A DNA stretch of 27,968 nt from an uncultured Lentisphaerales bacterium. GTDB taxonomy: Bacteria; Verrucomicrobiota; Lentisphaeria; JABSQK01; UBA12247. The position numbers and the translations under genes were made by a program. This document shows positions 2,168 through 27,968 of this stretch, piece after piece (the stretch's first letter is position 1; each line of letters begins with the position of its first letter). Where the stretch lies: NCBI GenBank assembly GCA_943788985.1, contig CALSSJ010000042.1, positions 1-27,968 of the forward strand, read 5' to 3'. Below the pieces are notes generated by a model that was not told the DNA's origin, made no database searches, and saw nothing but the letters and a program-made list of their open reading frames with translations.

Positions 2168-3046
2168 CTACCGCCCGCGGAAGCGGCGCCGGTATCCTGA
2201 CGGGGCTATGCCGTTCTGCTTCTTGAAGAAGCGGCTAAAGTAAAAGGCATCCGAGAATCGCAACTGATGGGCAATCTCTTTGACCGTCAACTCCGTGCCA
2301 ATGACCAGCTCAGCGGCAGCCTGATTGAGCCGACGGTTTAGATAGGCTTTGGGCGTAAAGCCGGTGCTCGCTGAAAATGCCATCGAAAACGCATGCGCAG
2401 CCGTCCCGTAAGCTCGCGCCATATCTGTAATGCGCAGGTCCGCCCCCAGGCTCTCCTCTACCAGCTTGAAGACCGGCTCGAACTGCGCGTGAGTCCTCAG
2501 GTGTTGCTCGATGATCGTGAACAACGGCGGCAGAATCGTAGCCAGCCAGGTCTGGATCTGACCATGCACCAGCAACATGTGGTTGTCCTCTGCGTCCCGT
2601 TCAGACTGCAGCCATGCCAGCCAGTCGGACTTGTCGCTCGGACCGATGCAAACCGGGGCCCGCTCCACCCAATCCAGAAGCGGATCGACCCCGGGCAGCC
2701 ACTCGCAACGAAAGGTCAGATAAAGCACCTCACCCGGCTCCTCGCAGCGACGCCCCACTGGCGTGTTTCCTGGCAAAAAATATGCATGCCCGGGTGCCAG
2801 TTCAAGAGCTCGATCGCCATGGTCCACCCAGCGACTGCCCGCGAACGGGATCTCGATGTGGTGCAGAAAGTCACACTGCCGCCGGCCATCGGATCCCCAC
2901 TCCGGCCCAACTTGGGCGTGATACATGCCCCCCAAGTGAATGCGAAATCGGTCTACGACGGCGAGTGAGCGACGCGGCGCATCGTCCTCGAATAGGCTCC
3001 TCGCATCCTGATGCGCTTGTGGGTCGGTCGTGTCAACCATTTTCAT
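2168..3046 (-). CDS. AraC-family transcriptional regulator
   Basis: Cupin-like N-domain (L.PGHAYFLPGN) and C-terminal HTH signature VKEIAHQLRFSDAFYFSRFFKKQNGIAPSGYR. The track ORF is over-extended into the divergent gene, so the start is placed at ATG 3046 (alternatives 3040 or 3097). Confidence 0.9.
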   Translation of the reverse strand: MKMVDTTDPQAHQDARSLFEDDAPRRSLAVVDRFRIHLGGMYHAQVGPEWGSDGRRQCDFLHHIEIPFAGSRWVDHGDRALELAPGHAYFLPGNTPVGRRCEEPGEVLYLTFRCEWLPGVDPLLDWVERAPVCIGPSDKSDWLAWLQSERDAEDNHMLLVHGQIQTWLATILPPLFTIIEQHLRTHAQFEPVFKLVEESLGADLRITDMARAYGTAAHAFSMAFSASTGFTPKAYLNRRLNQAAAELVIGTELTVKEIAHQLRFSDAFYFSRFFKKQNGIAPSGYRRRFRGR

Positions 3047-3090
3047 GGACAGCTCCAATTCTGACGGAAAAGACGTATTTTTCGAAAAAA

Positions 3091-3148
3091 TGTACATGGA
3101 TTTCGCCACTTTATCCAGCGTTCTTTCTTCACGGCTTGAGAGTATGAT
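3091..3148 (+). promoter_or_regulatory. Candidate AraC-activated promoter of the glycoside hydrolase
   Basis: TATGAT -10 at 3143-3148 with a poor -35. Weak direct repeats TGTACA (3091) and TATCCA (3112) are spaced 21 bp apart, as in AraC-type half-sites. Confidence 0.3.
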
Positions 3149-3187
3149 ACGAGCCTCACAGCAGAGCTTACCAACGGAGGGCCAAAA

Positions 3188-6100: not shown

Positions 6101-6754
6101 GCAGACCCGGCCGTGATCCGCTACGCGCCTCTGGCCGACACCGCGGAGTGGTTTCGGTTTCTATCCGCGCCCGGAACGACGGCGATTCAGCTGCAGACGC
6201 AGAGCCGCGAGCCGGCTCAAGCCTGGTGCAACGGCCAGCCGATGCGGGATTGTGGGGATGGCAAGTTTGAGGTCGAGAGCCCCGCTGCCGAAGCGGCGCT
6301 CATTGCGCTCCGGCTGCTGCCCGAGACCGGCTGCCTCGGCGGTGCCGCGATTCCCGAGCCCATCCTGGTGAAAACTAACGGCGAGGGCACGATGCCGCTC
6401 GGCGATTGGTCCGAGCTAGGCATTCTCAATAACTACTCGGGTGGTGTCTGCTACCAGACCAACATTTCGCTCACAGAGGCGGAAGCCTCCGGTTCGGTTC
6501 AGCTAGATCTGGGGCGCGTGGTGGCAACTGCCGAGGTGCTCGTGAACGGCGAGCTAGCAGGTATTCGTGTCGCGCCACCCTGGAAATTGGACCTCAGCGG
6601 CTTGCTGCAAGCAGGCCAGAACACGCTCACCGTGCGCGTGTTCAACACGCTGTCCAATCATTACCAAACGAGTCCCTCCCGCTACCGTGGCGACCCGGTA
6701 TCGGGCCTCATCGGCCCGGTCAGCCTAATCCTGGAAACTGACGCGACCTGCTAG
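3188..6754 (+). CDS. Large glycoside hydrolase, GH106 (alpha-L-rhamnosidase-like) family
   Basis: TTG start after GGAGG. N-terminal PFWWW..D.L..Q..E...KGI.G, FFNDE, EGYHSLGW, N..SLHG.YY.T..HWEWAPP. C-terminal beta-sandwich LDLG.V...AEV.VNG...G...PP...D...L..G.N.L.V.V.NTL.N. Confidence 0.8.
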   Translation: MKKESSTPIPGYPDRSSDLDAHPGFKNPPPGYGEVPFWWWSGDDLDPDRLLWQIRELHKKGISGVQVNYSHADTPGWLTDCGSPGLFTDDWWQIYTQVSEECGELGMGIGLSTYTVDWPNGAENLFYERFYKHEELHALRLVVGERQRLHGGESVTIEPVDEQFAARAYEIHDGLVCRGGVALDVAEDGSASWTAPNGEWEIWRFGCARTEGSLNALMPDAGETVIRGFYQQFEDHSPGGTGKGLNYFFNDELHIGEGKFAWHHDFAAEFARRKGYDLLDVLPALWTDMGPVTPKVRMDYADVRMSLMEERYFKPIFDWHTSRGIIYGCDNNGRGLEPAAYGDYFRATRWYSAPGHDTPGGLANLIKGKVSSSIASLYELPRVQLEGYHSLGWGATTERIMEATCENYLYGCNMLSLHGCYYTTRGSHWEWAPPCFHFRMPYWEHMGVFLKYFERLSYLMSQGHHACDVAVMYPVAPYEAEMDGQMATDTAFEIGRQLVAAGIDFTFIDHQSLAGAAVRDDTLTVKNGAASYRVIIFPNMQAARWHSVAKAAEFAEAGGQVLAVGALPEASDRVGANDTELETLLGRAFLPGQRLASAEQAVELVRNAFVQDVRGLNGPVRATHRRIGFRDVYLVMGANPGDVVEFRARGKVELWDPWTGESQPLPIVAESATGTQVALPLESSQAQVVVFTPGEPTKLPRPTPAQTVSRALTGSWQVRFEPTMNNRFGDFRLPITAANETIGLEARRFRWQQESAESAKTAMLPETDDTAWRTQRHGHGLQFYRLGPIPETNDVAELDARLATLESIEPTLPVTINGQPHHWQPYDFSWREGREDDAGHQGFHGLKGTISENFIRLGKLAGQRAHAVVLEADTHNRNYLWSSVQLAEAAEVTLHISEPAPAVTNGSPVNAPAAVFIDGQQVADLNATLSLSAGSHSVLLRYEDCGESHVVLRRAGAPTPEQLPELAMPWYADPAVIRYAPLADTAEWFRFLSAPGTTAIQLQTQSREPAQAWCNGQPMRDCGDGKFEVESPAAEAALIALRLLPETGCLGGAAIPEPILVKTNGEGTMPLGDWSELGILNNYSGGVCYQTNISLTEAEASGSVQLDLGRVVATAEVLVNGELAGIRVAPPWKLDLSGLLQAGQNTLTVRVFNTLSNHYQTSPSRYRGDPVSGLIGPVSLILETDATC

Positions 6755-9735: not shown

Positions 9736-10392
9736 ATGAAACGCGTAATGCGGCGCACCTGGAAACAGGTGCGCTTCCGTCTCGTCTCTGGGCTGTTGGT
9801 GTTGGTCCCACTCGCCATCACCATCTTCATCCTGCGGCTTCTTCTCGGCTTTCTTCAGGATTTCATCCAGCCGCTGGTACGCGTTCTGCGGCAACACTGG
9901 GACTTCGGCATCTCCAGTACCGGCGTTGACTGGCTGACGCCCATCCTGGCCATTCTGCTCGTCATCTGCGCCCTCTTTCTCGTGGGTTCTCTGACCACCT
10001 ATGTGGTGGGACGACGCGCCATCAAGGCAGCCGAGGCCCTGATGTTGCGCATCCCCGGTGTCAGCGCCATCTATTCCGCTTCCCGCCAGCTCGTAGATGC
10101 CATTGGCGGCAAGAACAAGAACGCATTCGAGTCCGTGGTCGAGTTGGCCATGTTCAGCGGCGTCCACCAGACCATCGGCTTCGTCACCGCGACCATCCCC
10201 CATGAAGGTGAAGAGAAGTACATGGTTTTCGTCCCGACCGCGCCCAACCCCATGTCAGGCTTCCTGCTGATCGCCAAAAAGGAACACTGTAAGCTGATCG
10301 ACATCTCAGTCGAGGATGCCTTGAAGCTAATCATGTCCGCCGGCCTGCTTTCCAATACAATTCTGCCAGGCACTCAATCAGGGCCGGAATAA
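9736..10392 (+). CDS. DUF502 family membrane protein
   Basis: GLLVLVPLAIT, RIPGV..IY, IGFVT, VFVPTAPNPMSGF, SVEDALKLIMSAG. Confidence 0.88.
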   Translation: MKRVMRRTWKQVRFRLVSGLLVLVPLAITIFILRLLLGFLQDFIQPLVRVLRQHWDFGISSTGVDWLTPILAILLVICALFLVGSLTTYVVGRRAIKAAEALMLRIPGVSAIYSASRQLVDAIGGKNKNAFESVVELAMFSGVHQTIGFVTATIPHEGEEKYMVFVPTAPNPMSGFLLIAKKEHCKLIDISVEDALKLIMSAGLLSNTILPGTQSGPE

Positions 10393-10470
10393 TCGCTTGT
10401 TACGGACCATGAATCGACAATAGTACCCCTCCGCTTCACACCTTTCCCGAAACGCTGGAATCCAACACCC

Positions 10471-11211
10471 ATGACCTCCTTGGGGAAAAATCTCCTCTTC
10501 GCTTGCCTCATTGGCAGTCTGCTGGCTGGCTGTGGCAGTAGCGAGGCGCCAAACGAGCAGAACCGCTTCTATCTGCGTGGGCGCAAGCATGTCCAGGCCA
10601 ATGAGCCCGACAAGGCTGTGACCGCATTTCGCGAGTGCCTGCGGCGCAGCCCCGGCTCGCACAAAGCGCACCTTGAACTGGGCATGCTGTCCGAAGACCA
10701 CCTGCACGATCTCAACGGTGCCATCCTCCACTACCGCGCCTTTCTCAAGGTATCGGTCGACGACCAGAAGAACGCCGCCGTGCGGCTGTGGCTCAATCGC
10801 GTCGAGCGCGACCTGCTGCGAGAACTGCGCCTGATTTATGAAGGCCCCGAATTGCCCCGCGTGGCACGGCCGGCCTCACGCCCCTCTACCGTCCCTACAG
10901 CGCCGCGGCCCCGCTCGAGTGCACGACCGCCAGCAGCGATCGAGCCGCCAGTCATCGTGCTCGGCACGCCAGGCAGCACACCGTCCCGGACGACTACGCT
11001 CGCTCCCCAGGTCACCGCGCCACCACCCAATCAGCCAGAGAAAGCCTTTCGCTGGTACACCGTAAAAGGCGGAGATTCACTGGCGCGCATTGCCAAGAAG
11101 GAGCTGGGAAGCGAGAAGTTCTGGGGCGTCATCTACAACATGAACCGTGACATCTTGCCCAACGAAAGCCGCGTCGGCGTAGGCCAGCGCCTCCGGATCC
11201 CCACCGACTGA
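10471..11211 (+). CDS. Lipoprotein with TPR-like region, Pro-rich linker and C-terminal LysM domain
   Basis: Lipobox LAGC; AV..F..CL...P....AHLELG TPR pattern; YTVKGGDSLARIAK...IYNMN...VGQRLRIP. Confidence 0.88.
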   Translation: MTSLGKNLLFACLIGSLLAGCGSSEAPNEQNRFYLRGRKHVQANEPDKAVTAFRECLRRSPGSHKAHLELGMLSEDHLHDLNGAILHYRAFLKVSVDDQKNAAVRLWLNRVERDLLRELRLIYEGPELPRVARPASRPSTVPTAPRPRSSARPPAAIEPPVIVLGTPGSTPSRTTTLAPQVTAPPPNQPEKAFRWYTVKGGDSLARIAKKELGSEKFWGVIYNMNRDILPNESRVGVGQRLRIPTD

Positions 11212-11215
11212 TTTT

Positions 11216-11243
11216 GGGAGCGCGGGCGTCTCGCCTGCGCCCC
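11216..11243. repeat. REP-like palindrome between convergent genes
   Basis: GGGAGCGCGGGCG-TCT-CGCCTGCGCCCCC imperfect hairpin, 4 bp after the LysM gene stop. Confidence 0.6.
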
Positions 11244-11346
11244 CAGCCAGGCACAAAAGGCCCTCGTGCTTCGCGAAGGGCGCAGAAAAGATAGACTCGA
11301 GTCGTTTTTTGGGCCGTTCTCGCCCTTGTTGGCGCTCTCAGGCAAG

Positions 11347-11742
11347 CTACTCGACTACAGAAGGGCCTCGGACGGCGGCGGCGGCTTGCGGCAGAATCGG
11401 CATCCCGCAGGCTTTCATCCCCCAGCCCAGCAGCAGATAACACAGGGCGGTCAGGGCAATCCCGGCCAACAGCGCCAGCCAGAAATTTGTCCCCTGCCGC
11501 AGCATCCGGGACATCAGCAGAAACATTGGCAAGCTCGGCAGAACCAGCCAAAAGGTGAAGTAGGCGTGGTTGGCGATTTTCTCGCTCGGCTGCTGCTCGA
11601 CATGCAGCCAGATCATGACCATGATCGTGATCAGCGGCAAGGCCGCAATCAATGCCCCCATGCGGTCGAAACGCTTCGCTATTTCTGAAACCGCAACGAT
11701 GACCAAGGTGGTGATTGCGAACTTCGCAACTAAAAGATACAT
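11347..11742 (-). CDS. DUF3147 family small membrane protein
   Basis: KF.IT...IV.VSEIAKR....GALIAALPLIT, FW.VLPSLPMFL; four hydrophobic segments. Confidence 0.82.
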   Translation of the reverse strand: MYLLVAKFAITTLVIVAVSEIAKRFDRMGALIAALPLITIMVMIWLHVEQQPSEKIANHAYFTFWLVLPSLPMFLLMSRMLRQGTNFWLALLAGIALTALCYLLLGWGMKACGMPILPQAAAAVRGPSVVE

Positions 11743-11766
11743 AACGCGATGCCAGAGTTTGGGCTG

Positions 11767-11932
11767 CTAGTGGTGAATCATAAGTTCGTAGGTCAATGCG
11801 AAAGGCATTTTGGATGCTCCGGTGCGCTGGTGATCACGAGTCGATGCTGGGCCATCGGCGAGGTGGCGCCGGTGCGGTGGAGCGCCGAAACGCCCTCGCA
11901 TTTCTCGACGAACCTGTGATTCACCACACTAG
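11767..11932. mobile_element. Non-autonomous miniature inverted-repeat element (MITE) flanked by CTAG
   Basis: CTAG at 11767-11770 and 11929-11932. Terminal inverted repeats TGGTGAATCATAAGTTCGT (11771-11789) and ACGAACCTGTGATTCACCA (11908-11926), 17/19 match. The interior is also self-complementary. No transposase. Confidence 0.75.
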
Positions 11933-11975
11933 ATCCAAGCCATATTGTCGCCGCGCAGGCGGCGATTGCAAGCGG

Positions 11976-13286
11976 TCACTGCACTTGTTGGGCCCCGCGA
12001 GCCAGCGCCGCCCCTAGGGCCAGGACCATGAACACCAGCGCAATGCCCAGCATCGCCCGATCGCTCAGCCACTTCTTCGTCACGTTACCTGGTGCGTAAT
12101 TCGCATTCGGGACAGGTTTTGCGAACTCCGCAACGCCTGGAAGTTGGTCCTTTAGCCGATCCAGCACATCCCCCACGGCGTACTGCGGGTGGCCCTTGGT
12201 CGGGTTGCCGTAGCTCAGGGATACAGGACCGGTGGGGATAAATGCCAGCTCATACCGCGGCCCGCGTAACAAGACTGTGCGCACCGTGAGAGGCGCCTCA
12301 TCGTTGTTTGGAATTCGCAGCCGATACTGCTCATGCCGATCCGCGCCCAGATGAATCATGTGGTCGCCCTGCTCAGCCCCGGAAACTGCCACGAATCTGG
12401 CCGATCCCAGCCTCTGCCACATGCCCTCGCCTGCCTGCCCTTCGAGGATGACGGTTCTAGCCCAAGCCTGCTCCCCCACGGTGAGCCCGATGCTGGTAAG
12501 CTCGCGCGGCCCACGCGGAAAGGCGACCATGGTCTCGTTGCGGTCTGTCTGCTCGCTCCCACTCGGCGTCACGGGCCAGGTATCGTAGATTGCCTTGGCT
12601 TCGACGCGCTTCACGAAACTGAAGAGCTGGATCGCTGAAACCTGCAGAACCTTGTCAGGCACCGCCCTGATCTCGGTCACAGAGGACCTGCCGTCGTCAT
12701 GCGCGGTCTGCGTCACGGTCCGAACCGGGCCTACCCCCTGATGCTGGTCTGGCCCTACCGTGATTCGATAGTCCACGGCGGCGTGTGCCGGAAGCATCAC
12801 GGTGACCTCGCGGTGCTGGGAGAGCTTGCCGCGGTCGTAAATGGTCGCTCCAGTGACCAGGCGCTGCCATTGCCCCTGAACGAGCACGTCTACATCTACC
12901 GCATGCTTGAAGCCACGACTGCTGGTCGCAAACTCCAAGCCGGAGGCTGGGACCTTGCCCTTCGCCTCCACGCCAATCTGCAGCCTGCCTTCTCCGACGC
13001 GCTCGATGTCCGCCAGGCGCGATTGCAAAGGCTCACGGATGCGGCGTTGGCTGCGTTTGGCTGCCTGTTGCAGAAGATACGGCACGATTAGACCATCCTG
13101 GTTAAAGAGCCGTAAGTCTCCGAGATCGCGCCGTGTGTGGACCGCGACATGGCCGTCTACCTGCACAAGCGCCCAGGCTGGAGTTCCAGCCCACGAGAGC
13201 TCTCGCGAGAATTTAAAATCACCAGGATCATCACCGCCCCAGGCCATCAGACCCAGGACGCAGAAAAGCGAACAGACCGTACGCAT
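11976..13286 (-). CDS. DUF3999-like exported protein with C-terminal membrane anchor
   Basis: Signal peptide, DLGDLRLFN.DG..VPY, YRLRI.N.D..PL, LSYGNP....PQY, C-terminal TM helix. Lies 5 bp downstream of the DUF2339 gene, its usual partner. Confidence 0.72.
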   Translation of the reverse strand: MRTVCSLFCVLGLMAWGGDDPGDFKFSRELSWAGTPAWALVQVDGHVAVHTRRDLGDLRLFNQDGLIVPYLLQQAAKRSQRRIREPLQSRLADIERVGEGRLQIGVEAKGKVPASGLEFATSSRGFKHAVDVDVLVQGQWQRLVTGATIYDRGKLSQHREVTVMLPAHAAVDYRITVGPDQHQGVGPVRTVTQTAHDDGRSSVTEIRAVPDKVLQVSAIQLFSFVKRVEAKAIYDTWPVTPSGSEQTDRNETMVAFPRGPRELTSIGLTVGEQAWARTVILEGQAGEGMWQRLGSARFVAVSGAEQGDHMIHLGADRHEQYRLRIPNNDEAPLTVRTVLLRGPRYELAFIPTGPVSLSYGNPTKGHPQYAVGDVLDRLKDQLPGVAEFAKPVPNANYAPGNVTKKWLSDRAMLGIALVFMVLALGAALARGAQQVQ

Positions 13287-13291
13287 CAGTC

Positions 13292-15670
13292 TTACTCCGG
13301 CTGTCGTTGAAAGTGTACATAGAGGAACGAGCCACCGAGAATCAGCACCCCCAGCACCAGGAACGCCACGATGCGATACAGCTGATGCAGCGCCGCTAGG
13401 TCATTGAAAAAGACCTTGCCAATCACGATCACGAACATGCCCAGCCCAGCGTACCGGAGCATCGGGACCGAGCGCACCATTCCCTGATGGACCAGGGTGA
13501 GAGCAAAGCCAGCCCAGAGAATGCTGATCCCGCCGGCCTGCATGTCCGGCAGAAAGACCAACAAGGCGGTATTTACCTCCAAGGTAAGCAGCACAGCCGT
13601 CAGCACCAGCCCGGCCGCCAGGTACAATCGCGCGATATCCCCCTTGAGCCCGCGATAGGCCACCAGCAAAAAGCCAGCGACCAAGGCCGCATCCAGCGTC
13701 CGCCCCAGCACCGCAAGGGCCGTGTAGTCCGCTCGGTAGATCCAGGCATCGTTAATGCCCCAAAAGCCCAGATCCATAATCAGCTTCACTGTGGCTACGA
13801 CTGAGAACAGCACCAGCCAGTCCAACACTCCCTTATGCTGCGTCCGGCGATACGCCAGCAGCAATCCCGCGGCCAAGGCAACCCAGATGCTGGTCACCGC
13901 ACCATTGCGCAAGTCCGGCAGGTAGCGTCCCACCGTGTAAAACAGCTCGACTTGGCAGAAGACGAACGCCATCGCCACGGCCACCACCAGCGCTGTCTGC
14001 GCCAGCGAGTGGTCACGCATCATCGCAGCCGGCTCATCGGCCTCCTCCTCCGGTAGCGCATTCCGCAACATTCGATAGCCCACCAGCAGCGTGCCGATCG
14101 GTACGCAAAAGACGACCATCCGCTCCAGCAGTAGCGTTGCGAACTCCCCAAACGTGGCCGTGGATTTCGCAGCCGCATATTGCATGCCAAGATCGTACGT
14201 GACAAACTGGAAGATCACGCAGCCGAACAGCAGGCAAGCGACCCTCTTGAGAAAGTTGCTGCCCAACCGAAGTGCCAGCCAGAGCAGCAGCAACGACTGC
14301 ACGGCCCACGTTGCGGACAGCCAGTTTCTGGAAAAGTACAGCGGGATCGTGATCGCCAGAAAGGCCGCGCTCAGTCCCAAGAAACTCAGCATCTGGGTGC
14401 GGTCGGCGCTGCGCTTGAGCCAGAGCCCAAAGTGCGCGGCATAGTACACGCTGATGGCCAATGCCATTAGGGCGACGCCCGACTTGTCGCCCAGTGCGAA
14501 GCAATGCGGCCTGGCCAGAATTGCGAACACCGCAGCGTTTACCACCAGCGCGATCACCTCCAGCACCGTCGCTCTCTCACGCCGCATCAGGTGCGGCAGA
14601 AACACCAAGGTCGAGTAGATCACGAAGCAGGCGATCAGAAAGCCGAGAACCACGGCGCTGTCGCCGGTGCCTGCGTGGCGTAGCACCCAAGCCCCAACCC
14701 CGTAGGTGGCCACGAAGCTCAACGCGTTCAGGACCCGCCAGTTCTTGTACGCCGACACCCCAAGCACACCCAAGGCCAGAACCAGCAGGTAGCCAAACTG
14801 CCCGGCCCAATCCGTGCCCGTCAGCATGATGGGAGTCCCAAAGCCACCCAGAACCCCCAGCACGGCAATGAGAATCGCATCTTGCCGTACCGCAATCACG
14901 CCAGCACACAGCGTCACCGCTGCCATCAACGCGTAGCCTGCCAGCAGTGGAATGAGCGCATGGATCTGGGCTGCCGTAAAAATGCTAAAGTACAAGGTCG
15001 CCAGACCGCCACCGATCAGGCCCTGCCCGATCAGATTGTAGCGCTTGCCCAGCTGGCGCACGCCGAAGCTGAGCATCACCGAGCCGATGATGACACCCAG
15101 CGCGACACGAGCGGCTGGCCCCAACCAGCCTTGATCGATCGAATAGCGCAGGAAAAAGCCCATCCCCAGCACGAACACCGCAATGCCGATCCGCAGCAGC
15201 CAGTTCGCCGCTACCGCATACTCCAGCTTCATGCCCGGCTGGCGATACTCCTTGCCCACAATAATCCAATTCCACGCGCGCCTCAGCACCTGAGCTGCCG
15301 CGCTGTCCGCCTTTTCCTCGGGTTCCGGCTCTTGCTCGGCCTCTGTGACAGGTATTGCGGAGTTCGCAATCACTGGTACCGGAGCTGGTGCCTGGACACG
15401 GACGGCTAAGGGCGGCAGCCGAAATGGCTCAGGTTTTGCGATCTCCGCAATCGGCTCAGGAGCGACCACCACCTTCGGCTCTGGAACTGGGGCTGGTTTG
15501 CTGGCGGGCTCAGAGTCACGCAGCGACTTCAGCGCCGCCTCGTGTTTCCACAGCATTTTCAAGACGGTCCGATGATTCTCGCGCTGCTCGCTCAGCATCG
15601 TGTAGATCGCGCGGACCGCGACCACCATCAGCGTAACTGCCACAGCTAGCAGAAAAGTTTCCAGTGCCAT
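13292..15670 (-). CDS. DUF2339 family polytopic membrane protein
   Basis: E..VAANWL.RIG...FVLG.GFFLRYS...GW.GP..RV, L.GGG.A.LY, GGF.TP; C-terminal KVFF.DL..L...YRIVAFL.LG. GAGG RBS. Confidence 0.9.
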   Translation of the reverse strand: MALETFLLAVAVTLMVVAVRAIYTMLSEQRENHRTVLKMLWKHEAALKSLRDSEPASKPAPVPEPKVVVAPEPIAEIAKPEPFRLPPLAVRVQAPAPVPVIANSAIPVTEAEQEPEPEEKADSAAAQVLRRAWNWIIVGKEYRQPGMKLEYAVAANWLLRIGIAVFVLGMGFFLRYSIDQGWLGPAARVALGVIIGSVMLSFGVRQLGKRYNLIGQGLIGGGLATLYFSIFTAAQIHALIPLLAGYALMAAVTLCAGVIAVRQDAILIAVLGVLGGFGTPIMLTGTDWAGQFGYLLVLALGVLGVSAYKNWRVLNALSFVATYGVGAWVLRHAGTGDSAVVLGFLIACFVIYSTLVFLPHLMRRERATVLEVIALVVNAAVFAILARPHCFALGDKSGVALMALAISVYYAAHFGLWLKRSADRTQMLSFLGLSAAFLAITIPLYFSRNWLSATWAVQSLLLLWLALRLGSNFLKRVACLLFGCVIFQFVTYDLGMQYAAAKSTATFGEFATLLLERMVVFCVPIGTLLVGYRMLRNALPEEEADEPAAMMRDHSLAQTALVVAVAMAFVFCQVELFYTVGRYLPDLRNGAVTSIWVALAAGLLLAYRRTQHKGVLDWLVLFSVVATVKLIMDLGFWGINDAWIYRADYTALAVLGRTLDAALVAGFLLVAYRGLKGDIARLYLAAGLVLTAVLLTLEVNTALLVFLPDMQAGGISILWAGFALTLVHQGMVRSVPMLRYAGLGMFVIVIGKVFFNDLAALHQLYRIVAFLVLGVLILGGSFLYVHFQRQPE

Positions 15671-15836: not shown

Positions 15837-16826
15837 ATGAAACGCCTCAGCCTATTTACGATCTTGTTGGTTCTATGCCTGTGTAGTTGCGGAGATCGCA
15901 ACACCGGGCTCACGGTCTACTGCGCCCACGACGCGGTCTACTCGCAAGAAATCCTAAACGCCTTCAGCGCCGAGACCGGCATCGCCGTGACTGCAGTGTT
16001 CGACACCGAGGCGACCAAGTCCCTCGGCCTCATCGAGCGGATTCGCCGCGAGAAGACCAGCCCGCAGTGCGACGTATTTTGGAACAATGAGCTGCTGGGA
16101 ACCGTACAGTTGCAGCAGGAGGGCCTGCTCCAGCCCTACCAGGGAACGGGCTACGCCCGGATGCCGGCGCATGCCAAAGAGCCAGCCGGGCATTGGGTAG
16201 GCTTTGGCGCGCGAATGCGCGTGGTCATGGTCAACACCGAGCGATCGTCCCACACAGCGGCCAGCACGCTAGACGGTGACCTGAGCCAGTTTGCCATGGC
16301 CAAACCGCTCTACGGTACAACCCTCACCCACTATGCCGCCTTATGGCGTGAACTCGGCGCTGAGCTGCCCGCCCTGCATGCCGACCGCCTTGCCCGCGAG
16401 ATGAACATCCTGAACGGCAACGGCGCGGTGAAGCAAGCCGTAGCGATCGGCGCCGTCGAGTGGGGCTGGAGCGATACGGACGACTACTTCCTAGCGGTCG
16501 ACAGCGGCATGCCAGTGACGGCCTTTCCCGCGCGCCTGCCCAGCGGAAAGACGATCGCCATTCCGAACACCGTGGCCATCATTGCCGGAACGGCCCACAG
16601 TGCCGAGGCACGGCAGTTGGTGAACTATCTGCTGTCGCAGAAAACCGAGCTGGCCTTGGCCAACGGCCGCTCGCGCCAAATTCCGCTGGGGCCAGTGCCC
16701 GCCGACGCCCTGCCCGAGGCCCTGCGCCCCTGGCAAGCCTGGGCCCAAGAAGCAGTCAGCCTCGAAGACCTGAGCGACGCTCGCGCACGCTGCATCGCCT
16801 GGCTGAAAGCCGCCCCCCAAAAGTAG
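15837..16826 (+). CDS. ABC transporter extracellular solute-binding lipoprotein (Fe(III)/thiamine-like PBP2 group)
   Basis: ATG 15837 after GGAG; lipobox LCSC; VYCAHD..YS..IL..F..ETGI.V, DTEATKS.GL, CDVFWNNE, IPNTVAII.G....AEA..LV.YLLS. Confidence 0.85.
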   Translation: MKRLSLFTILLVLCLCSCGDRNTGLTVYCAHDAVYSQEILNAFSAETGIAVTAVFDTEATKSLGLIERIRREKTSPQCDVFWNNELLGTVQLQQEGLLQPYQGTGYARMPAHAKEPAGHWVGFGARMRVVMVNTERSSHTAASTLDGDLSQFAMAKPLYGTTLTHYAALWRELGAELPALHADRLAREMNILNGNGAVKQAVAIGAVEWGWSDTDDYFLAVDSGMPVTAFPARLPSGKTIAIPNTVAIIAGTAHSAEARQLVNYLLSQKTELALANGRSRQIPLGPVPADALPEALRPWQAWAQEAVSLEDLSDARARCIAWLKAAPQK

Positions 16827-16905
16827 TGTCTCCCCCAGCGTCCCCATCCCCTCAGAGGCTTGACGTTGTGGTAGATATCCGGATTAGGACAAGAAAATGG
16901 AGCAG

Positions 16906-16934
16906 TTGTAACTGCCCCGACAATTTAGTATAAC
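16906..16934 (+). promoter_or_regulatory. Sigma-70-like promoter with no downstream protein gene
   Basis: TTGTAA (16906-16911), 17 bp, TATAAC (16929-16934). Confidence 0.4.
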
Positions 16935-16965
16935 GCGGGACGGAGATCGAATGCTCTTGACACTT

Positions 16966-16984
16966 CCTATGGCCAGGCCATAGG
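16966..16984. repeat. Perfect 9+1+9 dyad
   Basis: CCTATGGCC-A-GGCCATAGG, starting 3 bp after a TTGACA at 16957-16962. Confidence 0.65.
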
Positions 16985-17049
16985 TCCCCGTGCCCGCTTG
17001 GCTCTTGGAATTCAGGTCACCCTCCCATTCATTCGTTCGCCTTCTTCTC

Positions 17050-17095
17050 TGTAACGTGACCCGTATGCTGCGCGCAGCATACGGATCACGTTACA
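17050..17095. repeat. 46-bp near-perfect palindrome (REP-like)
   Basis: TGTAACGTGACCCGTATGCTGCG|CGCAGCATACGGATCACGTTACA: 23-bp arms, one mismatch, no spacer. Confidence 0.85.
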
Positions 17096-17310
17096 TGGAG
17101 CCAGAGTAGGACCAGAAAATTGGGCAATGCCCTGGTGAAGTAGCGTGTTCTTCTCCCTTCAATCTTCTTATGCCATTCGGGCGCTAGCTGGCAAAAACCG
17201 CAGTTAGCGCGACTCGGCTCAGAAAGCCAAGCTACCTGCTATGACTCATGATCCTACTTATTGCCACCGACACATCCTGCCGGTAAAAGGCGGGGCTATC
17301 GTGGTCCTAT

Positions 17311-24005: not shown

Positions 24006-25358
24006 GTGAAGACGTTTGATCTGTTTGTCATTGGTGCCGGATCCGGTGGAGTTCGGGCAAGCCGCATGGCTGCTGCCACGGGCGCTGCGGTCGGCATTGC
24101 CGAATCCGGCCCGCTGGGCGGGACCTGCGTAAATGTGGGCTGCGTGCCCAAGAAGCTGCTCGTGTATGCCGCACACGTCGCGCATGATGTCGAGGATGCG
24201 CGCGGATTCGGCTGGGACATCAGCACCCCCATTCATGACTGGGCCGCGCTGATTCGAAGCAAAGATGCGGAGATCGCACGCCTCAACGGAATCTACGGCG
24301 GCCTTCTGGATGGCGCTGGTGTGAGTTTGCTCTCCGGTCAAGCACGGCTGCTGGATGCGCACACCGTGCAGGTGGGCGAAGAAGTGGTGCGCGCGGAGCA
24401 CATCGTGATCGCGACCGGCAGTACGCCGCGGCCCCTGGAAATCCCCGGTGGAGAGCTGGCCATCACCTCCAACGAGATCTTTGCCCTCCCCGCCCTGCCG
24501 CAGCGCGTGCTGATCGTCGGTGGCGGCTATATTGCCGTCGAGTTTGCCGGAATCCTGAACGGCTTGGGCGCAAAGGTGACGCAGATTTACCGCGGAGAGA
24601 TGTTTCTGCGTGGCTTCGATGATGACCTACGCCAAGGACTGGCGACGATCATGCCCACCCAAGGCGTGGACCTGCGGTTCAATTGCAACGTCAGCCAGAT
24701 CGAGCAAAAAGACGACGGACTTCATTGCACACTTACCGATGGCTCAACTCTAGTAGCAGACCAGGTGCTGTCTGCCATCGGGCGCGTGCCGCTAGTCGAC
24801 GGGCTGGGGCTCGACGCGGCAGGCGTACGTTGCGCGGCAGATGGCGCGATCGAAGTAGACGCCTGGTCGCGCACTAACGTGCCGCAGATCTCGGCAATCG
24901 GCGATGTCACCAATCGCATGAACCTTACACCGGTCGCGATTGCCGAGGCGATGGCGCTGGTGCAGACGTTATACCATGACAATCCCACCAAACCGCAATA
25001 CCAAAACATAGCCACCGCGGTCTTTAGTACCCCCCCAATGGCCACAGTCGGGTTGACGGAGCCAGAAGCTCGTCAACAGTATGCGCATGTGGACGTCTAC
25101 CGCTCCACATTTCGCCCGATGAAATATACGCTGGCTGGCCGCGAGGAGCGCTCTGTGATGAAGTTGTTGGTGGACCGAGATACCGATCGCGTGCTGGGCG
25201 TGCACATGTTGGGCCCCGATGCAGGAGAAATCATGCAAGGCTTTGGCGTAGCCTTGGTCTGTGGCGCGACCAAAGCACAGTTTGATGCCACCATTGGCAT
25301 TCATCCTACCAGCGCAGAGGAGTTTGTGACCATGCGTACCCCGGTTCAGGAGATCTGA
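24006..25358 (+). CDS. gor: Glutathione-disulfide reductase
   Basis: FDLFVIGAGSGGVRA, redox-active GGTCVNVGCVPKK, GGGYIAVEFA, NADPH-type YRG...LRGFD, HPTSAEE. Confidence 0.92.
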   Translation: MKTFDLFVIGAGSGGVRASRMAAATGAAVGIAESGPLGGTCVNVGCVPKKLLVYAAHVAHDVEDARGFGWDISTPIHDWAALIRSKDAEIARLNGIYGGLLDGAGVSLLSGQARLLDAHTVQVGEEVVRAEHIVIATGSTPRPLEIPGGELAITSNEIFALPALPQRVLIVGGGYIAVEFAGILNGLGAKVTQIYRGEMFLRGFDDDLRQGLATIMPTQGVDLRFNCNVSQIEQKDDGLHCTLTDGSTLVADQVLSAIGRVPLVDGLGLDAAGVRCAADGAIEVDAWSRTNVPQISAIGDVTNRMNLTPVAIAEAMALVQTLYHDNPTKPQYQNIATAVFSTPPMATVGLTEPEARQQYAHVDVYRSTFRPMKYTLAGREERSVMKLLVDRDTDRVLGVHMLGPDAGEIMQGFGVALVCGATKAQFDATIGIHPTSAEEFVTMRTPVQEI

Positions 25359-25359
25359 G

Positions 25360-25734
25360 ATGCCGGGACTACGAGCGCTCATCGACTTCAGCTGTGCCGA
25401 AGATGGCTGTGGCCAACCCATACAATTCAATCTGCTCGACCTGCGCGCGGGCGAAGGTGTCGTCACCTGTGAACGCTGCCGCCAAAGCTATGACTTTGAC
25501 GACGAGTTCTTGGATAAGCTGAATAAGCTGCGCGTGCTGATTCTGGCCGTGAAAGACGCGGAAGACATCTTGGGAGACTGCAGTGTCGGCGTCGCCACCG
25601 CAAACGGCGAGATAAAACTCCCGTACAAGCTGCTACTCACCCGCCTGAATACCCAGATCACCTTCGCCGGCTCAGGGAAGACCATGGACTTCCACTTTCG
25701 TGTCGAACCGCTCGCGGGCGAGACCTTTCGCTAG
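25360..25734 (+). CDS. Conserved hypothetical protein with N-terminal Zn-ribbon-like Cys pairs
   Basis: C-x4-C ... CxxC, then A.DILG...V.V....G.IKLPYKLLLTRLN...F.FRVEPL. Starts 1 bp after the gor stop. Confidence 0.8.
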   Translation: MPGLRALIDFSCAEDGCGQPIQFNLLDLRAGEGVVTCERCRQSYDFDDEFLDKLNKLRVLILAVKDAEDILGDCSVGVATANGEIKLPYKLLLTRLNTQITFAGSGKTMDFHFRVEPLAGETFR

Positions 25735-25791
25735 CAAGATGCGTAGCGGGTCTTCCATTCCAACTGGTTCCCACCACGGGGGCGCTGCCTC

Positions 25792-27174
25792 GTGACTGTC
25801 ATGTTCGCAATTGCTATGCTCTGTCTACTGATTGCATGCGTGATCTGTGACCGACAACGCCGACAACTGGCGACTTCTGAGCGAGCACGCGAACGCGCCG
25901 AGCTCGAGCGCAACAAAATGGAGGGGTTTCTTCGCGCCTCCTTCCATGCGCTGACCACCGCAAGCTCGCCAGAAGCGTTTCTCGATTATATCGCCGGGGA
26001 GCTCACAGACGCTGTCGATACGCTGGCTATCCGCATCTTTGAGCTCGAAGGTGACACACTCAAGCTTGTCGCCGAGTTTGGTCAGATCCCGCCAGACCCG
26101 CCGGAAGAATGCCGCATGGGCAAGTCTGCGACGGTCCTGCACCAGCTGCATCAGAATGAGCTCTCGATCCGTACCGGCCACATTGGCGAGATGGCAGTCA
26201 GCGGGACGGGTTGGATCCTAAACACGCCGGCGGATGACCCCAGCGGCCTACCTACATTTATGACCGTCCCTCTGTCGATCGACAACACCCAGCGGCTGGG
26301 CGTGATCTGCGCCATTGGCCATCGCCATGGCGGTAAATTTGATGGCCGCGACAGCCGGCTCCTCTCCTCGCTTGGCTCCGAACTGGCGCTCGCGATGTCC
26401 CTGATCGACGCCAACGATGACCTCGAAGAGAAAGGCCGCCTGGACGTGGAACTGCAGTCTGCGCGGGAGATGCAGGCCGAGTTGCTGCCGGATGTCATCC
26501 CCTTCAGCACGCGGCTGGACATCCACGGCACCAACATCACTGCCCGACAGGTTAGCGGTGACTTTTTTGATATTGTGCAGTTGGACAATGACACCGTGCT
26601 GGTAACGATCGCAGACGCCAGCGGAAAAGGTATTCCTGCCTGCATGATTGCAGCCATGTGCCGCAGTTTCGTGCGGGCCAATGCGACGCGGTTTCGTTAC
26701 AACCTCGAAGGGCTGCTGTTCGAGCTAAACCAGCATCTTTACGCAGACACCCAACCGGGCCTCTTTGTGACCGTGGCCTGCTGCCTGATCGACAAGAAAG
26801 AGGGCACCGTAGACTATGCCCGCGGGGGCCACGGCCCGTTGCTCATTCGTCACACAGACGGCCGCATTGAAGAGATCAAACCGCAGGGTGCTGCCGTCGG
26901 CATGCTTGACAACGAGCTGAGCTTTGGCTTCGACACCTTTTCATTTGCCTGGCCCATCGGCACCTCCATGCTGATGTACACCGACGGGATCAGCGAGGCA
27001 GAAAACCCGAGCGCCGAGGAATTCGGCAAGAACCGCCTCATCGAAAGCTGGTCTAGCCAGAAGGGAAATTCCGAATCTGCAATCGATGGGATTATGCTGG
27101 ACCTGGCGGAGTTTACCCAGTCACACCCCCAAGGGGACGATCAGACCCTGGTCGTAATGACCCGAAAAGCGTAA
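25792..27174 (+). CDS. RsbU/SpoIIE-like PP2C phosphatase with N-terminal TM helix and GAF-like domain
   Basis: EL..A..MQ..LLP, VSGDFFD, IADASGKG, FVT, ARGGH.P, YTDGI.EA, EEFG..RL, DDQT. Confidence 0.9.
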   Translation: MTVMFAIAMLCLLIACVICDRQRRQLATSERARERAELERNKMEGFLRASFHALTTASSPEAFLDYIAGELTDAVDTLAIRIFELEGDTLKLVAEFGQIPPDPPEECRMGKSATVLHQLHQNELSIRTGHIGEMAVSGTGWILNTPADDPSGLPTFMTVPLSIDNTQRLGVICAIGHRHGGKFDGRDSRLLSSLGSELALAMSLIDANDDLEEKGRLDVELQSAREMQAELLPDVIPFSTRLDIHGTNITARQVSGDFFDIVQLDNDTVLVTIADASGKGIPACMIAAMCRSFVRANATRFRYNLEGLLFELNQHLYADTQPGLFVTVACCLIDKKEGTVDYARGGHGPLLIRHTDGRIEEIKPQGAAVGMLDNELSFGFDTFSFAWPIGTSMLMYTDGISEAENPSAEEFGKNRLIESWSSQKGNSESAIDGIMLDLAEFTQSHPQGDDQTLVVMTRKA

Positions 27175-27183
27175 GGCTGACTC

Positions 27184-27968
27184 ATGGCAATTGAACGATT
27201 CCGGCTCCCTAAACTGTACGAGAACATGGACGAAGCCACTGTCGGACAGTGGCTTGTCAAAGAAGGCGACCAGATCGAAGTCGGCCAGCCGCTGGTGGAA
27301 TTGATTACCGATAAGACCGTACTCGAGTATGACTCGCCAGTCAGCGGCCCTGTCCGCAAAATTCTGGCACCGCCCAAGAGTGTCGTGCCCATCGGCTACA
27401 TCCTGGCCCTGTTTGGGGACGGAACCCTGCCGAACGTGGCCGATGAGAACGAAGCCATGATCGCCGCTGTCTCTCAAGAGTTGCAGGCGGTCGAGGCCGT
27501 GGCTGTCGCCAAGCCCGCCGCCAAGCCCCGCGCTCGAGTAGCCCCCGCCGCCAAGGCGCTGGTCAAGAAGCACGGGCTATCCATAGACCAGCTCGTCGCT
27601 GCGTTTCCCAGCCAAGTCATTCATAAGCGCGATGTCGAAGAGTATCTAGAATCGCGCGAGAGTGAGGACGAAGATACGCCTACCACCGAAACTGCGGCAA
27701 TGCCTGAAACGCTTTCCCCCGATGCCCAGCACATCGCGCTCATCACTGGTGCCACAGGCGGCATCGGCCAGGCCATCGCCCATGCCTTTGCCCGCAAGGG
27801 CTGGTCGCTCGCCCTTCACTACCACAGCAATCAAGAAGCCGCCGAGGCGCTTGCCCGCCCCTTGCGCGAGGCAGGCTGTGAATGCATTACTTTCCAGGCA
27901 GATCTCACCGACTCCGCTGCCACACGAGGCCTCACCGACGCCGTGTTGGAGCGCTTCGAGCGCATTGA
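27184..27968 (+). CDS. Lipoyl domain + E3-binding domain + FabG-like SDR fusion protein (3' truncated by window)
   Basis: Single open frame from ATG 27184 to the window end, absent from the ORF track. W.VKEGD....GQPLVELITDKT (lipoyl Lys at 27313), APAAKALVKKHGLSID...IHKRDVEEYL, acidic linker, then IALITGATGGIGQAIA (TGxxxGIG at 27745-27768), LALHYHSN, QADLTD. Confidence 0.88.
   Translation, partial: MAIERFRLPKLYENMDEATVGQWLVKEGDQIEVGQPLVELITDKTVLEYDSPVSGPVRKILAPPKSVVPIGYILALFGDGTLPNVADENEAMIAAVSQELQAVEAVAVAKPAAKPRARVAPAAKALVKKHGLSIDQLVAAFPSQVIHKRDVEEYLESRESEDEDTPTTETAAMPETLSPDAQHIALITGATGGIGQAIAHAFARKGWSLALHYHSNQEAAEALARPLREAGCECITFQADLTDSAATRGLTDAVLERFERI

Follow-up and report, generated by a model that had tools for sequence, protein, structure and literature searches.

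The fusion gene

The stretch considered here, the window, comprises the 27,968 nt of contig CALSSJ010000042.1 from an uncultured Lentisphaerales bacterium. Its last gene encodes a lipoyl domain and a peripheral-subunit-binding domain (PSBD), ordered as in the acyltransferase (E2) subunits of 2-oxoacid dehydrogenases and followed in the same frame by a FabG-type short-chain dehydrogenase/reductase (SDR). In the list of open reading frames (ORFs), this frame is free of stops from the ATG at 27184 to position 27966 of the forward strand (261 codons) and open at the 3' end of the window, which ends inside the gene and before any downstream neighbour. The start lies 9 nt 3' of the preceding gene. 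A complete form, P0001, was found in a public protein set; it has 425 aa, is 100% identical to the window product across the 261 residues and represents a cluster of 8 sequences from 18 contigs. The gene has the following features.

27184..27966, forward strand: lipoyl-PSBD-FabG-type fusion gene, 5' 261 codons of 425 aa (ORF list, P0001, Pfam)
27184..27423, forward strand: lipoyl domain, residues 1-80 (Biotin_lipoyl, E 5.9e-13; structural model; superposition on pyruvate dehydrogenase E2)
27313..27315, forward strand: K44 codon, for the predicted lipoyl-lysine of the hairpin turn TDKT (invariance; position in the model)
27439..27492, forward strand: conserved helix 3' of the lipoyl domain, residues 86-103 (both models; invariant columns)
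27493..27537, forward strand: Ala/Lys/Pro-rich flexible linker, residues 104-118 (low model confidence at 104-112; gappy, variable columns)
27538..27666, forward strand: divergent PSBD, residues 119-161 (weak E3_binding; family profile; helices in the model)
27667..27726, forward strand: acidic disordered linker, residues 162-181, with the ATG at 27700 (M173) (low model confidence at 162-179)
27727..27966, forward strand: N-terminal third of a FabG-type classical SDR (adh_short, E 1.1e-14; full domain in P0001)

In the window fragment, Pfam families Biotin_lipoyl (residues 5-75, 48.9 bits, cut-off 22.1) and adh_short (residues 184-261, 54.8 bits, cut-off 26.6) were found well above their cut-offs, and E3_binding (residues 119-152, E 0.038, 14.6 bits, cut-off 23.7) gave a weak match. 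Among NCBIfam models, residues 2-176 match best to N-terminal halves of E2 models (sucB, AcoC), in every case with scores far under the cut-off, and residues 180-261 to SDR models. The full-length P0001 contains only Biotin_lipoyl and SDR-type families, and no 2-oxoacid_dh core was found in it by Pfam. The stop-free frame, the order of the domains and the lack of an acyltransferase core, all noticed in an earlier note made from the window alone, are thereby borne out.

The full-length structural model, built with 43 sequences, has a mean predicted local distance difference test score (pLDDT) of 88.1. It consists of three confident domains and two segments with pLDDT below 50 (104-112 and 162-179), so that the protein resembles beads on a string. 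A complex prediction for the lipoyl domain (1-82) and the SDR (182-425) from paired 43-row alignments scored 0.00 and speaks neither for nor against contact between them. The P0001-type protein is an E2-type swinging arm joined through two flexible linkers to a complete FabG-type NAD(P)H-dependent ketoreductase.

The swinging arm

The arm was modelled from 23 family sequences with a mean pLDDT of 91.9; the model contains a beta-sandwich (1-78, pLDDT 94-98), followed by a helix (86-107) and a small domain of helices (121-158). The lipoyl domain carries the family signature LPKLYENMDEAT at residues 8-19. Foldseek places it on human pyruvate dehydrogenase (PDH) E2 lipoyl domains with 0.9-1.3 A across 77-79 columns (3crk_C, 0.9 A across 78 columns; 1y8n_B, 1.3 A across 79 columns). 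The ITDKT motif, by which the domain had first been recognised, occupies residues 41-45, with K44 in the turn that joins strands 36-41 and 46-50 of the arm model. This residue is invariant in the alignments (43/43 fused proteins and 23/23 arms) and is predicted to be the lipoyl-lysine.

The profile of the 23 arms spans the lipoyl domain to the PSBD of solved PDH E2 chains, the best six matches having E-values from 5e-39 to 4.5e-34. It also matches isolated PSBD structures, including 1w85_I, the PSBD chain of a complex with the decarboxylating subunit E1; E1 of the heterotetramer type is known to dock on this domain. The PSBD has conserved positions A120 P121 A122 A123, H147 and D150, and its helices lie at 121-129, 134-140 and 148-161 in the full-length model. 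Across the 23 arms, the lipoyl domain as a whole is more conserved than the PSBD. The assignment of a PSBD in the earlier note stands at the family level, where the profile aligns with solved E2 PSBDs and relatives pass the Pfam cut-off; in the window sequence itself the domain stays weak.

The helix after the lipoyl domain starts at residue 86 and ends at 107 in the arm model or at 104 in the full-length one, the block having pLDDT 87-94, and the surrounding positions G78, P83, D84 and N89 are invariant or nearly so in the family alignments. It lies outside the Pfam lipoyl and PSBD matches, and its motifs are kept across the phyla of the family.

The Ala/Lys/Pro-rich linker, described in the earlier note, coincides with the first low-confidence segment of the model. 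The description of the second linker as acidic holds for the window protein and fails for the family: in 43 relatives this linker has 11-45 residues, on average 11% D/E and 68% A/P/S/T/G/Q. Within it lies the in-frame ATG at 27700, which had been taken as a sign of two joined genes. However, methionine occurs in this column in 1/43 fused proteins, the linker varies in length, and no Shine-Dalgarno-like sequence was found 5' of the ATG, which is therefore not a relic start.

The ketoreductase domain

The window part of the SDR contains TGxxxGIG at residues 188-195. The domain is complete in P0001 (adh_short_C2, E 5.9e-67), with NNAG, Ser319 and the catalytic YxxxK beyond the window edge that the earlier note had proposed to seek, Tyr332-x3-Lys336. 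P0001 scores 260.5 bits with the FabG subfamily model NF009466 (cut-off 222) and 288.5 bits with the FabG equivalog TIGR01830, just under the cut-off of 297.75; the unfused SDRs of two related loci (L014 and L015, see below) pass the equivalog model with 309 and 300.8 bits. For the SDR of another unfused pair (L002), the closest solved structure is FabG (2ph3_A, E 6.9e-62), and nearly all of the 60 matches listed are FabG or acetoacetyl-CoA reductases. The FabG-like classical SDR that had been recognised from its N-terminus is borne out by the full domain. Public sources name the proteins 3-oxoacyl-ACP reductase FabG.

In an alignment of 45 sequences, positions S138, Y151 and K155 of Escherichia coli FabG are conserved in 45/45 and N110 in 39/45. 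Two further positions, at which E. coli FabG docks the acyl carrier protein (ACP), differ in their fate: R129 is kept in 40/45 sequences, and R172 is Arg in 4/45 and L, S or M in 41/45. The family also has its own neighbours of the active site, again beyond the window, namely D320 immediately after the catalytic Ser and an invariant R329 three positions before the catalytic Tyr (SDAG...R.NY in the family, SVVG...Q.NY in E. coli FabG). This pair may reflect an altered substrate.

Relatives, fused and split

A search for relatives of the fusion gave 609 matches, the best 120 of which were inspected; apart from P0001 and P0002 these have 37-72% identity. Biotin_lipoyl and adh_short occur together in one protein of 316-453 aa in 112 of the best 120 of 609, and the remaining 8 are lipoyl-only proteins. 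Five residues, K44 of the arm and N266, S319, Y332 and K336 of the SDR, are invariant in 43/43 aligned fused proteins.

A scan of species-representative genomes retrieved 80 loci. Thirty-five of them (L001-L035) carry the family signature (LPKLYENM...) and form, together with the window, the 36 family loci; the other 45 (L036-L080), ordinary E2 genes whose products end with the acyltransferase core, served as an internal control. Neighbours were considered within 10 kb. Arm and SDR are linked in 30/36 family loci. They form a single ORF in 23/36 (22/35 scanned loci and the window) and adjacent genes in 6/36 (L002, L004, L005, L006, L015, L014); in the first five of these the SDR match starts 3 nt 3' of the end of the arm ORF, and in L014 the two genes are separated by 457 nt. 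In one more locus (L029, 1/36) contiguous arm and SDR halves lie in different frames. L035 (1/36) is truncated, and arms without an SDR in reach occur in 5/36 loci (L007, L008, L024, L028, L033).

The fusion is real and under selection. A frameshift or stop between the halves, named in the earlier note as a possible sign of an artefact, was seen neither in the window nor in the 112 of the best 120 relatives; the split forms are adjacent genes, not unlinked ones, and such abutting pairs support the two-gene origin that the note had proposed. In a search for triple fusions of arm, SDR and ketosynthase longer than 744 aa, none of the 45 matches contained both arm and SDR, which is weak evidence.

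Several variants deserve separate mention. P0002 (97% identity, 265 aa, one contig) loses the frame immediately after GGIGQAIA (approximately residue 199) and runs on in the frame of the overlapping window ORF 27662-27967; the change is a 1-nt indel, due to a sequencing error or to a pseudogene in a sister strain. L010:9977-11605 encodes a 542-aa fusion variant in which lipoyl domain and SDR are set apart by some 100 additional residues; its E3_binding match lies at 238-258 and its SDR starts at residue 300. The opposite strand of this locus carries, 9 kb upstream, a family 2 glycosyltransferase (GT2) gene with 38% identity to the GT2 in the L014 operon. Upstream (5') of the fusion gene of Oligosphaera ethanolica, the opposite strand of L012:9557-9910 encodes short repeated units (SDQ..., SRI..., TDR...), which suggests a tandem DNA repeat in the promoter region and no gene. 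Finally, P0004, a fused protein with 49% identity, is attributed by NCBI to a Rhodothermales metagenome-assembled genome (MAG), outside the Planctomycetota-Verrucomicrobiota-Chlamydiota (PVC) group; this could be a case of horizontal transfer or a binning error.

Evolution of the arm

A tree was constructed for 39 arms: those of the window, of 33 other family loci (L029 and L035 being set aside) and, as an outgroup, of 5 ordinary E2 genes, with 40/45 E2 loci left out. The arm family separates from the ordinary E2 arms with support 97/99. All 23 fused forms fall, together with one clade of 4 split forms, into a single Lentisphaerota clade (support 98/96), and the window arm belongs to this clade, its nearest relative being L001 (54% identity), a position that points to a Lentisphaerota origin without proving it. 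Outside it are unfused arms of Armatimonadota, Verrucomicrobiota, Planctomycetota and a PVC bacterium, so that separate genes look ancestral and the fusion looks like an event within Lentisphaerota. At the base of the Lentisphaerota clade, the tree does not settle whether the split lineage is a secondary fission.

Stand-alone arms and a second fusion

The arm profile was compared with 1.84 billion representative proteins. At E <= 1e-3 there were 50,676 matches, most of them ordinary E2; the stricter threshold of E <= 1e-30 left 414. Among the best 150 there are 59 short stand-alone proteins (137-215 aa), 7 SDR fusions, 34 proteins with an E2 core and 50 others, mostly multi-lipoyl proteins missed by the four core probes (8/50 were looked at further). 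Two fragments, P0124 and P0202, were dropped from the short proteins and the remaining 57/59 analysed with Pfam: all 57 match Biotin_lipoyl and 55/57 match E3_binding, 49 of them above the cut-off. Stand-alone lipoyl and PSBD proteins of about 160-200 aa, a large family devoid of a catalytic domain, are represented among P0126-P0264. The loci of stand-alone arms adjoin glycosyltransferase, LptC-like, sugar-activation or ketosynthase genes.

In P0197 the arm is followed by a domain of the ACPS family (4'-phosphopantetheinyl transferase, E 3.9e-22). This architecture was found in 6/124 matches from several sources, with identities of 100, 96, 94, 50, 44 and 44%; the proteins are P0197 and P0314-P0318, and JGI names some of them holo-ACP synthase. 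The arm has been joined independently to two enzymes of ACP-dependent synthesis, FabG and holo-ACP synthase (AcpS), and the second fusion ties the arm family to this kind of synthesis.

Gene neighbourhoods

The earlier note had proposed to look downstream of the fusion gene for ACP, ketosynthase, E1, E3 and lipoate ligase genes. Among relatives, 11/36 family loci, from three phyla, have a ketosynthase (KS) gene downstream in the same orientation, as compared to 0/45 ordinary-E2 loci (Fisher p 5e-5, which is overstated since the loci are related). Of the 25 loci that contain an SDR and continue downstream for at least 1.3 kb, 10 have the KS; the eleventh case is L028, which lacks an SDR and whose arm gene runs into the beginning of a KS/KS' pair.

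The KS proteins of Lentisphaerota are long (640-692 aa). Their first 400 residues or so are FabF-like (259-272 bits, cut-off 493.75) with an intact Cys-His-His triad. The tail of about 250 residues, which was assigned by Atlas features and by sequence comparison, is homologous to the separate second KS gene, here called KS', of L014, L015 and L028 (E 1e-13 to 1e-23); Pfam found no family in 4/5 tails and a weak ketoacyl-synt match (E 0.024) in one. The long KS is an active FabF-like KS fused to a truncated dead KS-like half (L012:11349-13280, L009, L019-L022, L029), and KS and KS' are separate genes in L014, L015 and L028 and, within Lentisphaerota, in L013. Cys-His-His is kept in 9/9 KS, whereas all three residues are missing in 9/9 KS' genes or tails. 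As judged from these residues, the relatives' loci encode an active KS paired with a dead, chain-length-factor-like KS'. The pair is known from relatives (11/36 loci); the window ends inside the fusion gene.

In two unfused operons the arm is accompanied in addition by alpha and beta subunits of E1. Both share the gene order arm, SDR, KS, KS', E1alpha, E1beta, GT2, as follows.

L015 (Verrucomicrobiota MAG)
9800-10495: arm
10498-11235: SDR
11255-12439: KS
to 13691: KS'
13688-14650: E1alpha
to 15612: E1beta
to 16475: GT2

L014 (Armatimonadota MAG)
arm, then SDR, then S9-like hydrolase, then KS
ending at 16179: KS'
16176-17132: E1alpha
then E1beta, then GT2, then a family 4 glycosyltransferase (GT4)

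KS' and E1alpha overlap by 4 nt in both operons and are translationally coupled. The two E1alpha proteins match E1_dh with E 4e-90 and 2e-88; with the equivalog model they reach 365 and 355 bits, slightly short of its cut-off of 393.85. E1beta exceeds the cut-off of the PDH E1beta subfamily model (365 bits against 321). When the L014 and L015 proteins were used as probes, E1alpha/beta were found in 2/36 family loci versus 14-15/45 control loci. An E1 that could load the arm travels with the family, but near no Lentisphaerota fusion and nowhere in the 27 kb of the window.

Family and control loci were further searched by tblastn with E. coli K-12 probes, and neighbours were also clustered. The E2 core (AceF probe) was found in 0/36 family loci versus 42/45 ordinary-E2 loci, and an Lpd-like gene in 1/36, the glutathione reductase of the window, versus 34/45. 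On the other hand, FabG-like genes occur in 28 and FabF-like genes in 12 of the 36 family loci, the latter versus 0/45. These counts place the arm family outside the usual E2 neighbourhood. FabH, FabD and AcpP probes gave 0/36, and the fusion SDR accordingly lies outside the fabH-fabD-fabG-acpP-fabF cluster. LipA, LipB and LplA were found in 0/36 family loci, and LipA near 7/45 ordinary E2 genes. The AceE-type E1 probe, which is blind to the alpha/beta type of E1, gave 0/36. A regular-expression search for ACP genes among the small ORFs of the loci found none, the 11 candidates looking like spurious high-GC frames, and no dehydratase or enoyl reductase was found near family loci.

Envelope and glycoconjugate genes are frequent at loci outside Lentisphaerota. 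GT4 immediately precedes the arm in L007 and L008, GT2 and GT4 occur in L014 and L015, an LptC/LptA-like gene in L024, Wzy_C in L028, and a GHMP kinase with a nucleotidyltransferase in L033. From these genes one may speculate that the product is a glycolipid containing hydroxy fatty acids.

Other genes of the window

Three genes precede the fusion gene on the same strand.

24006-25358, forward strand: glutathione-disulfide reductase, an E3-family flavoprotein (TIGR01424, 633.8 bits, cut-off 606.05)
25360-25734, forward strand: 124-aa protein with no Pfam or NCBIfam match (ORF list)
25792-27174, forward strand: GAF and SpoIIE/PP2C phosphatase (family match)

Including the fusion, the region 24006-27966 contains four co-directional genes with gaps of 1, 57 and 9 nt, which probably form one transcript. 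However, none of the three upstream genes clustered with any neighbour of the 35 related loci, and the Lpd probe matched only in the window, so a functional link of these genes to the fusion is not supported. Glutathione reductase as a surrogate for the dihydrolipoyl dehydrogenase E3 was rejected as a general explanation, given an Lpd-like gene near 1/36 loci. The tblastn search agrees with the earlier note that no E1, E2 core or E3 gene lies upstream in the window, the E3-family flavoprotein at 24006-25358 being a true glutathione-disulfide reductase.

Elsewhere in the window, Pfam identified the following genes.

365-772: DUF6370 protein
2168-3385, reverse strand: AraC-type regulator
3188-6754: GH106-like rhamnosidase, 1188 aa
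19721-22321, reverse strand: Ser/Thr kinase, 866 aa

Region 1-23300 also encodes zinc-dependent alcohol dehydrogenase-like, cytidylyltransferase, universal stress, DUF502, solute-binding, NifU-like, xylose-isomerase-like TIM-barrel, LOG/lysine-decarboxylase-like and response-regulator receiver proteins, as well as DUF3999 and DUF2339 membrane proteins (Pfam).

Possible mechanism

The recurrent partners of the arm, namely KS/KS', E1 and the AcpS fusion, point to the arm serving a chain-elongation module with the SDR as its ketoreductase, more than to a delivery of acyl groups or reducing equivalents to the SDR itself, which the earlier note had considered. No E2 core was found at any family locus or in P0001, hence another acceptor must take an acyl group from the arm. 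We tentatively propose, as a possibility that we would not call probable, that the lipoyl arm, once loaded by E1, supplies KS/KS' and the tethered ketoreductase with an acyl primer, which would be a core-less entry into elongation bypassing coenzyme A (CoA). The domains, their conservation, the fused and split forms and the gene neighbourhoods are direct observations; starting from them, and supposing lipoylation, the partners of the PSBD, and KS/KS' and E1 genes in the host, we infer the following steps. A PDH-like E1alpha/beta of the heterotetramer type would dock on the PSBD, decarboxylate a 2-oxoacid, probably pyruvate, and reductively acylate the lipoyl group on K44. The acyl-dihydrolipoyl arm would then swing to KS/KS' and prime the KS cysteine, a transfer replacing the E2-core step with CoA. 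The KS would condense the primer with malonyl-ACP from the cell's own fatty-acid machinery, the tethered FabG domain would reduce the 3-oxoacyl product, and a cellular E3 would re-oxidise the arm.

A number of observations weigh against this proposal. We know of no precedent for acyl transfer from a lipoyl group to a KS. The KS is missing from 15/25 loci with enough downstream sequence, including all of the nearest relatives of the window, and in L001, L003 and L026 the downstream gene encodes the rRNA methyltransferase RsmI. E1alpha/beta genes lie within 10 kb in only 2/36 family loci and near 0/27 Lentisphaerota loci of the arm tree, the window included. Neither E3 nor lipoate-attachment genes were found around the 36 family loci. 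The window PSBD is divergent and under the Pfam cut-off, and a precomputed E3_binding match is present in only 8 of the best 120 of 609 relatives; its partner may therefore have changed. Finally, the SDR is so FabG-like that it could fit a housekeeping FabG role.

The alternative that survives best, although we consider it unlikely, is that the arm is only a tether, which by its PSBD, and perhaps its lipoyl domain too, docks FabG or AcpS on a hub such as E1, E3 or KS/KS' with no acyl transfer. The result would be a fatty-acid-synthesis metabolon beside a source of two-carbon (C2) units. Neither of the two enzymes fused to the arm shares substrate chemistry with lipoate, the linkers are flexible, the PSBD is conserved, and the SDR resembles an ordinary ACP-dependent FabG, all of which suits docking. 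However, a pure docking role leaves unexplained why K44 is invariant both in the fused proteins and in the arms, and the lipoyl domain is the more conserved of the two arm domains.

One might also suppose, though this is improbable, that the lipoyl-lysine arm is itself the thioester carrier of the module in place of phosphopantetheine on ACP or CoA, a PDH-type E1 writing the acyl group and KS/KS' and the ketoreductase building and reducing the chain while it remains on the arm or cycles through it. If this were true, lipoate would gain a sixth kind of dependent system and, for the first time, a part in the chemistry of chain elongation. The related suggestion that the dihydrolipoyl arm stands in for ACP, shuttling the nascent chain, bound as a thioester, from KS/KS' to the fused ketoreductase (KR) and back, is improbable to the same degree. 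In its favour, an active KS, a dead KS', a KR and a carrier-like arm mirror the minimal type II set. It agrees with the failure of the AcpP probe and the spurious look of the small ORFs, with the fusion of arm and KR, which suits a substrate carrier, and with the lack of Arg at the ACP-docking position R172 in 41/45 sequences. On the other hand, R129 is kept, no malonyl-loading enzyme was detected near family loci (FabD probe 0/36), the fusion of the arm to AcpS implies that a real ACP takes part, and neither a dehydratase nor an enoyl reductase is nearby.

A redox role has just as little probability. The lipoyl dithiol would pass reducing equivalents to a peroxiredoxin-type acceptor, similar to the mycobacterial Lpd-DlaT-AhpD-AhpC system, which is a lipoyl redox relay to a peroxiredoxin, or else would regulate FabG by its redox state. 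The position of the window gene 3' of glutathione reductase and the GAF/PP2C phosphatase, with the short gaps given above, would fit such a relay or sensor, as would an AhpC/TSA-family gene directly upstream of the arm in L014. However, these neighbours are not conserved, the Lpd-like gene being confined to the window and the redoxin to one locus, and the synteny with KS/KS' and E1 and the AcpS fusion would be left without explanation.

Even less can be said for a relay in lipoate assembly, which seems very improbable. Here the arm would be an octanoyl or lipoyl acceptor, as GcvH is in Bacillus, placed on fatty-acid-synthesis enzymes that make octanoyl-ACP, and the lipoyl groups would be passed on. 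A bona fide lipoyl domain with an invariant Lys does sit on such enzymes, and this role needs no E2 core; but LipA, LipB and LplA are absent from the neighbourhoods of the family, LipA being found near ordinary E2 genes, and the conserved PSBD and the co-operonic E1 would be unnecessary. An assembly chimera, or a missed stop or frameshift between neighbouring genes, has a negligible probability: despite the frame loss in P0002 and the two frames of L029, the intact 425-aa form is represented by 8 sequences on 18 contigs, single ORFs are seen in 112 of the best 120 relatives, down to 37% identity, and in 22/35 genome loci, and both halves contain invariant residues.

Comparison with known systems

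To our knowledge, only five systems depend on lipoate: the glycine cleavage system, acetoin dehydrogenase and three 2-oxoacid dehydrogenases; in the dehydrogenase complexes the lipoyl arm sits on an acyltransferase-type core. The fusion shares with E2 of the pyruvate, 2-oxoglutarate and branched-chain 2-oxoacid dehydrogenase complexes the order of N-terminal lipoyl domain, linker and PSBD, as seen in the profile matches (E 5e-39 to 4.5e-34), but has a FabG-type SDR in place of the 2-oxoacid_dh core; moreover, the family arms form their own clade (97/99), and an Lpd-like gene is near 1/36 of them versus 34/45 ordinary E2 genes. Protein X is similar in having a lipoyl and PSBD arm without an active canonical core (1zy8_K and 6h60_A match the profile, E 1.5e-16), and so is the AcoC-type E2 of acetoin dehydrogenase, whose model PRK14875 matches residues 2-157 with E 1e-19, although the window score of 70.8 bits is far under the 307-bit cut-off. 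Protein X keeps an inactive E2-like core and AcoC has an alpha/beta-hydrolase fold, whereas the C-terminal domain of the fusion is a Rossmann-fold ketoreductase.

The SDR itself is a complete classical one with TGxxxGxG, NNAG and Ser-Tyr-Lys, as in FabG, from which the fusion differs in its 180-residue N-terminal E2 arm, the replacement of R172 in 41/45 sequences, and D320 and R329. A lipoyl domain attached to another enzyme by a flexible linker is also present in Neisseria P64K (1gjx, among both the fold and the sequence matches). However, the partner there is E3, a normal member of the lipoate cycle, and here it is a ketoreductase or, in another lineage, AcpS. Lastly, in E1/E2-like systems of the naphthyridinomycin NapB/NapD type a thiamine pyrophosphate enzyme reportedly loads a lipoyl group, from which a C2 unit passes to a carrier protein of a thioester assembly line instead of CoA. 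That system reportedly keeps an acyltransferase domain and an ACP, neither of which was found here, where the neighbours are KS/KS' and KR.

The earlier note had allowed that the architecture might already be characterised. In a full-text literature search, neither a lipoyl/PSBD-SDR protein nor an operon of E1, arm and KS was found described, and no published characterisation turned up. The fusion would be an instance of E2-type lipoyl arms serving thioester chemistry, in a form that the search found undescribed, and the non-canonical lipoate-linked system suspected in that note is supported.

The plain label FabG misdescribes at least 112 protein clusters that now carry it. In this family a well-conserved arm has lost the core and is tied to enzymes of fatty-acid and polyketide synthesis, by fusion to FabG or AcpS, by operons with a KS and a dead KS, and sometimes by its own E1. 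One carrier, the non-pathogenic Oligosphaera ethanolica DSM 24202 (L012), is in culture, which makes the question directly testable. The fusion hints at an undescribed link between enzymes of the pyruvate-dehydrogenase type and those of fatty-acid synthesis. If the arm indeed passes an E1-derived acyl group to the KS, it would provide a CoA-independent shortcut from 2-oxoacids to lipid synthesis, and a new use of lipoate.

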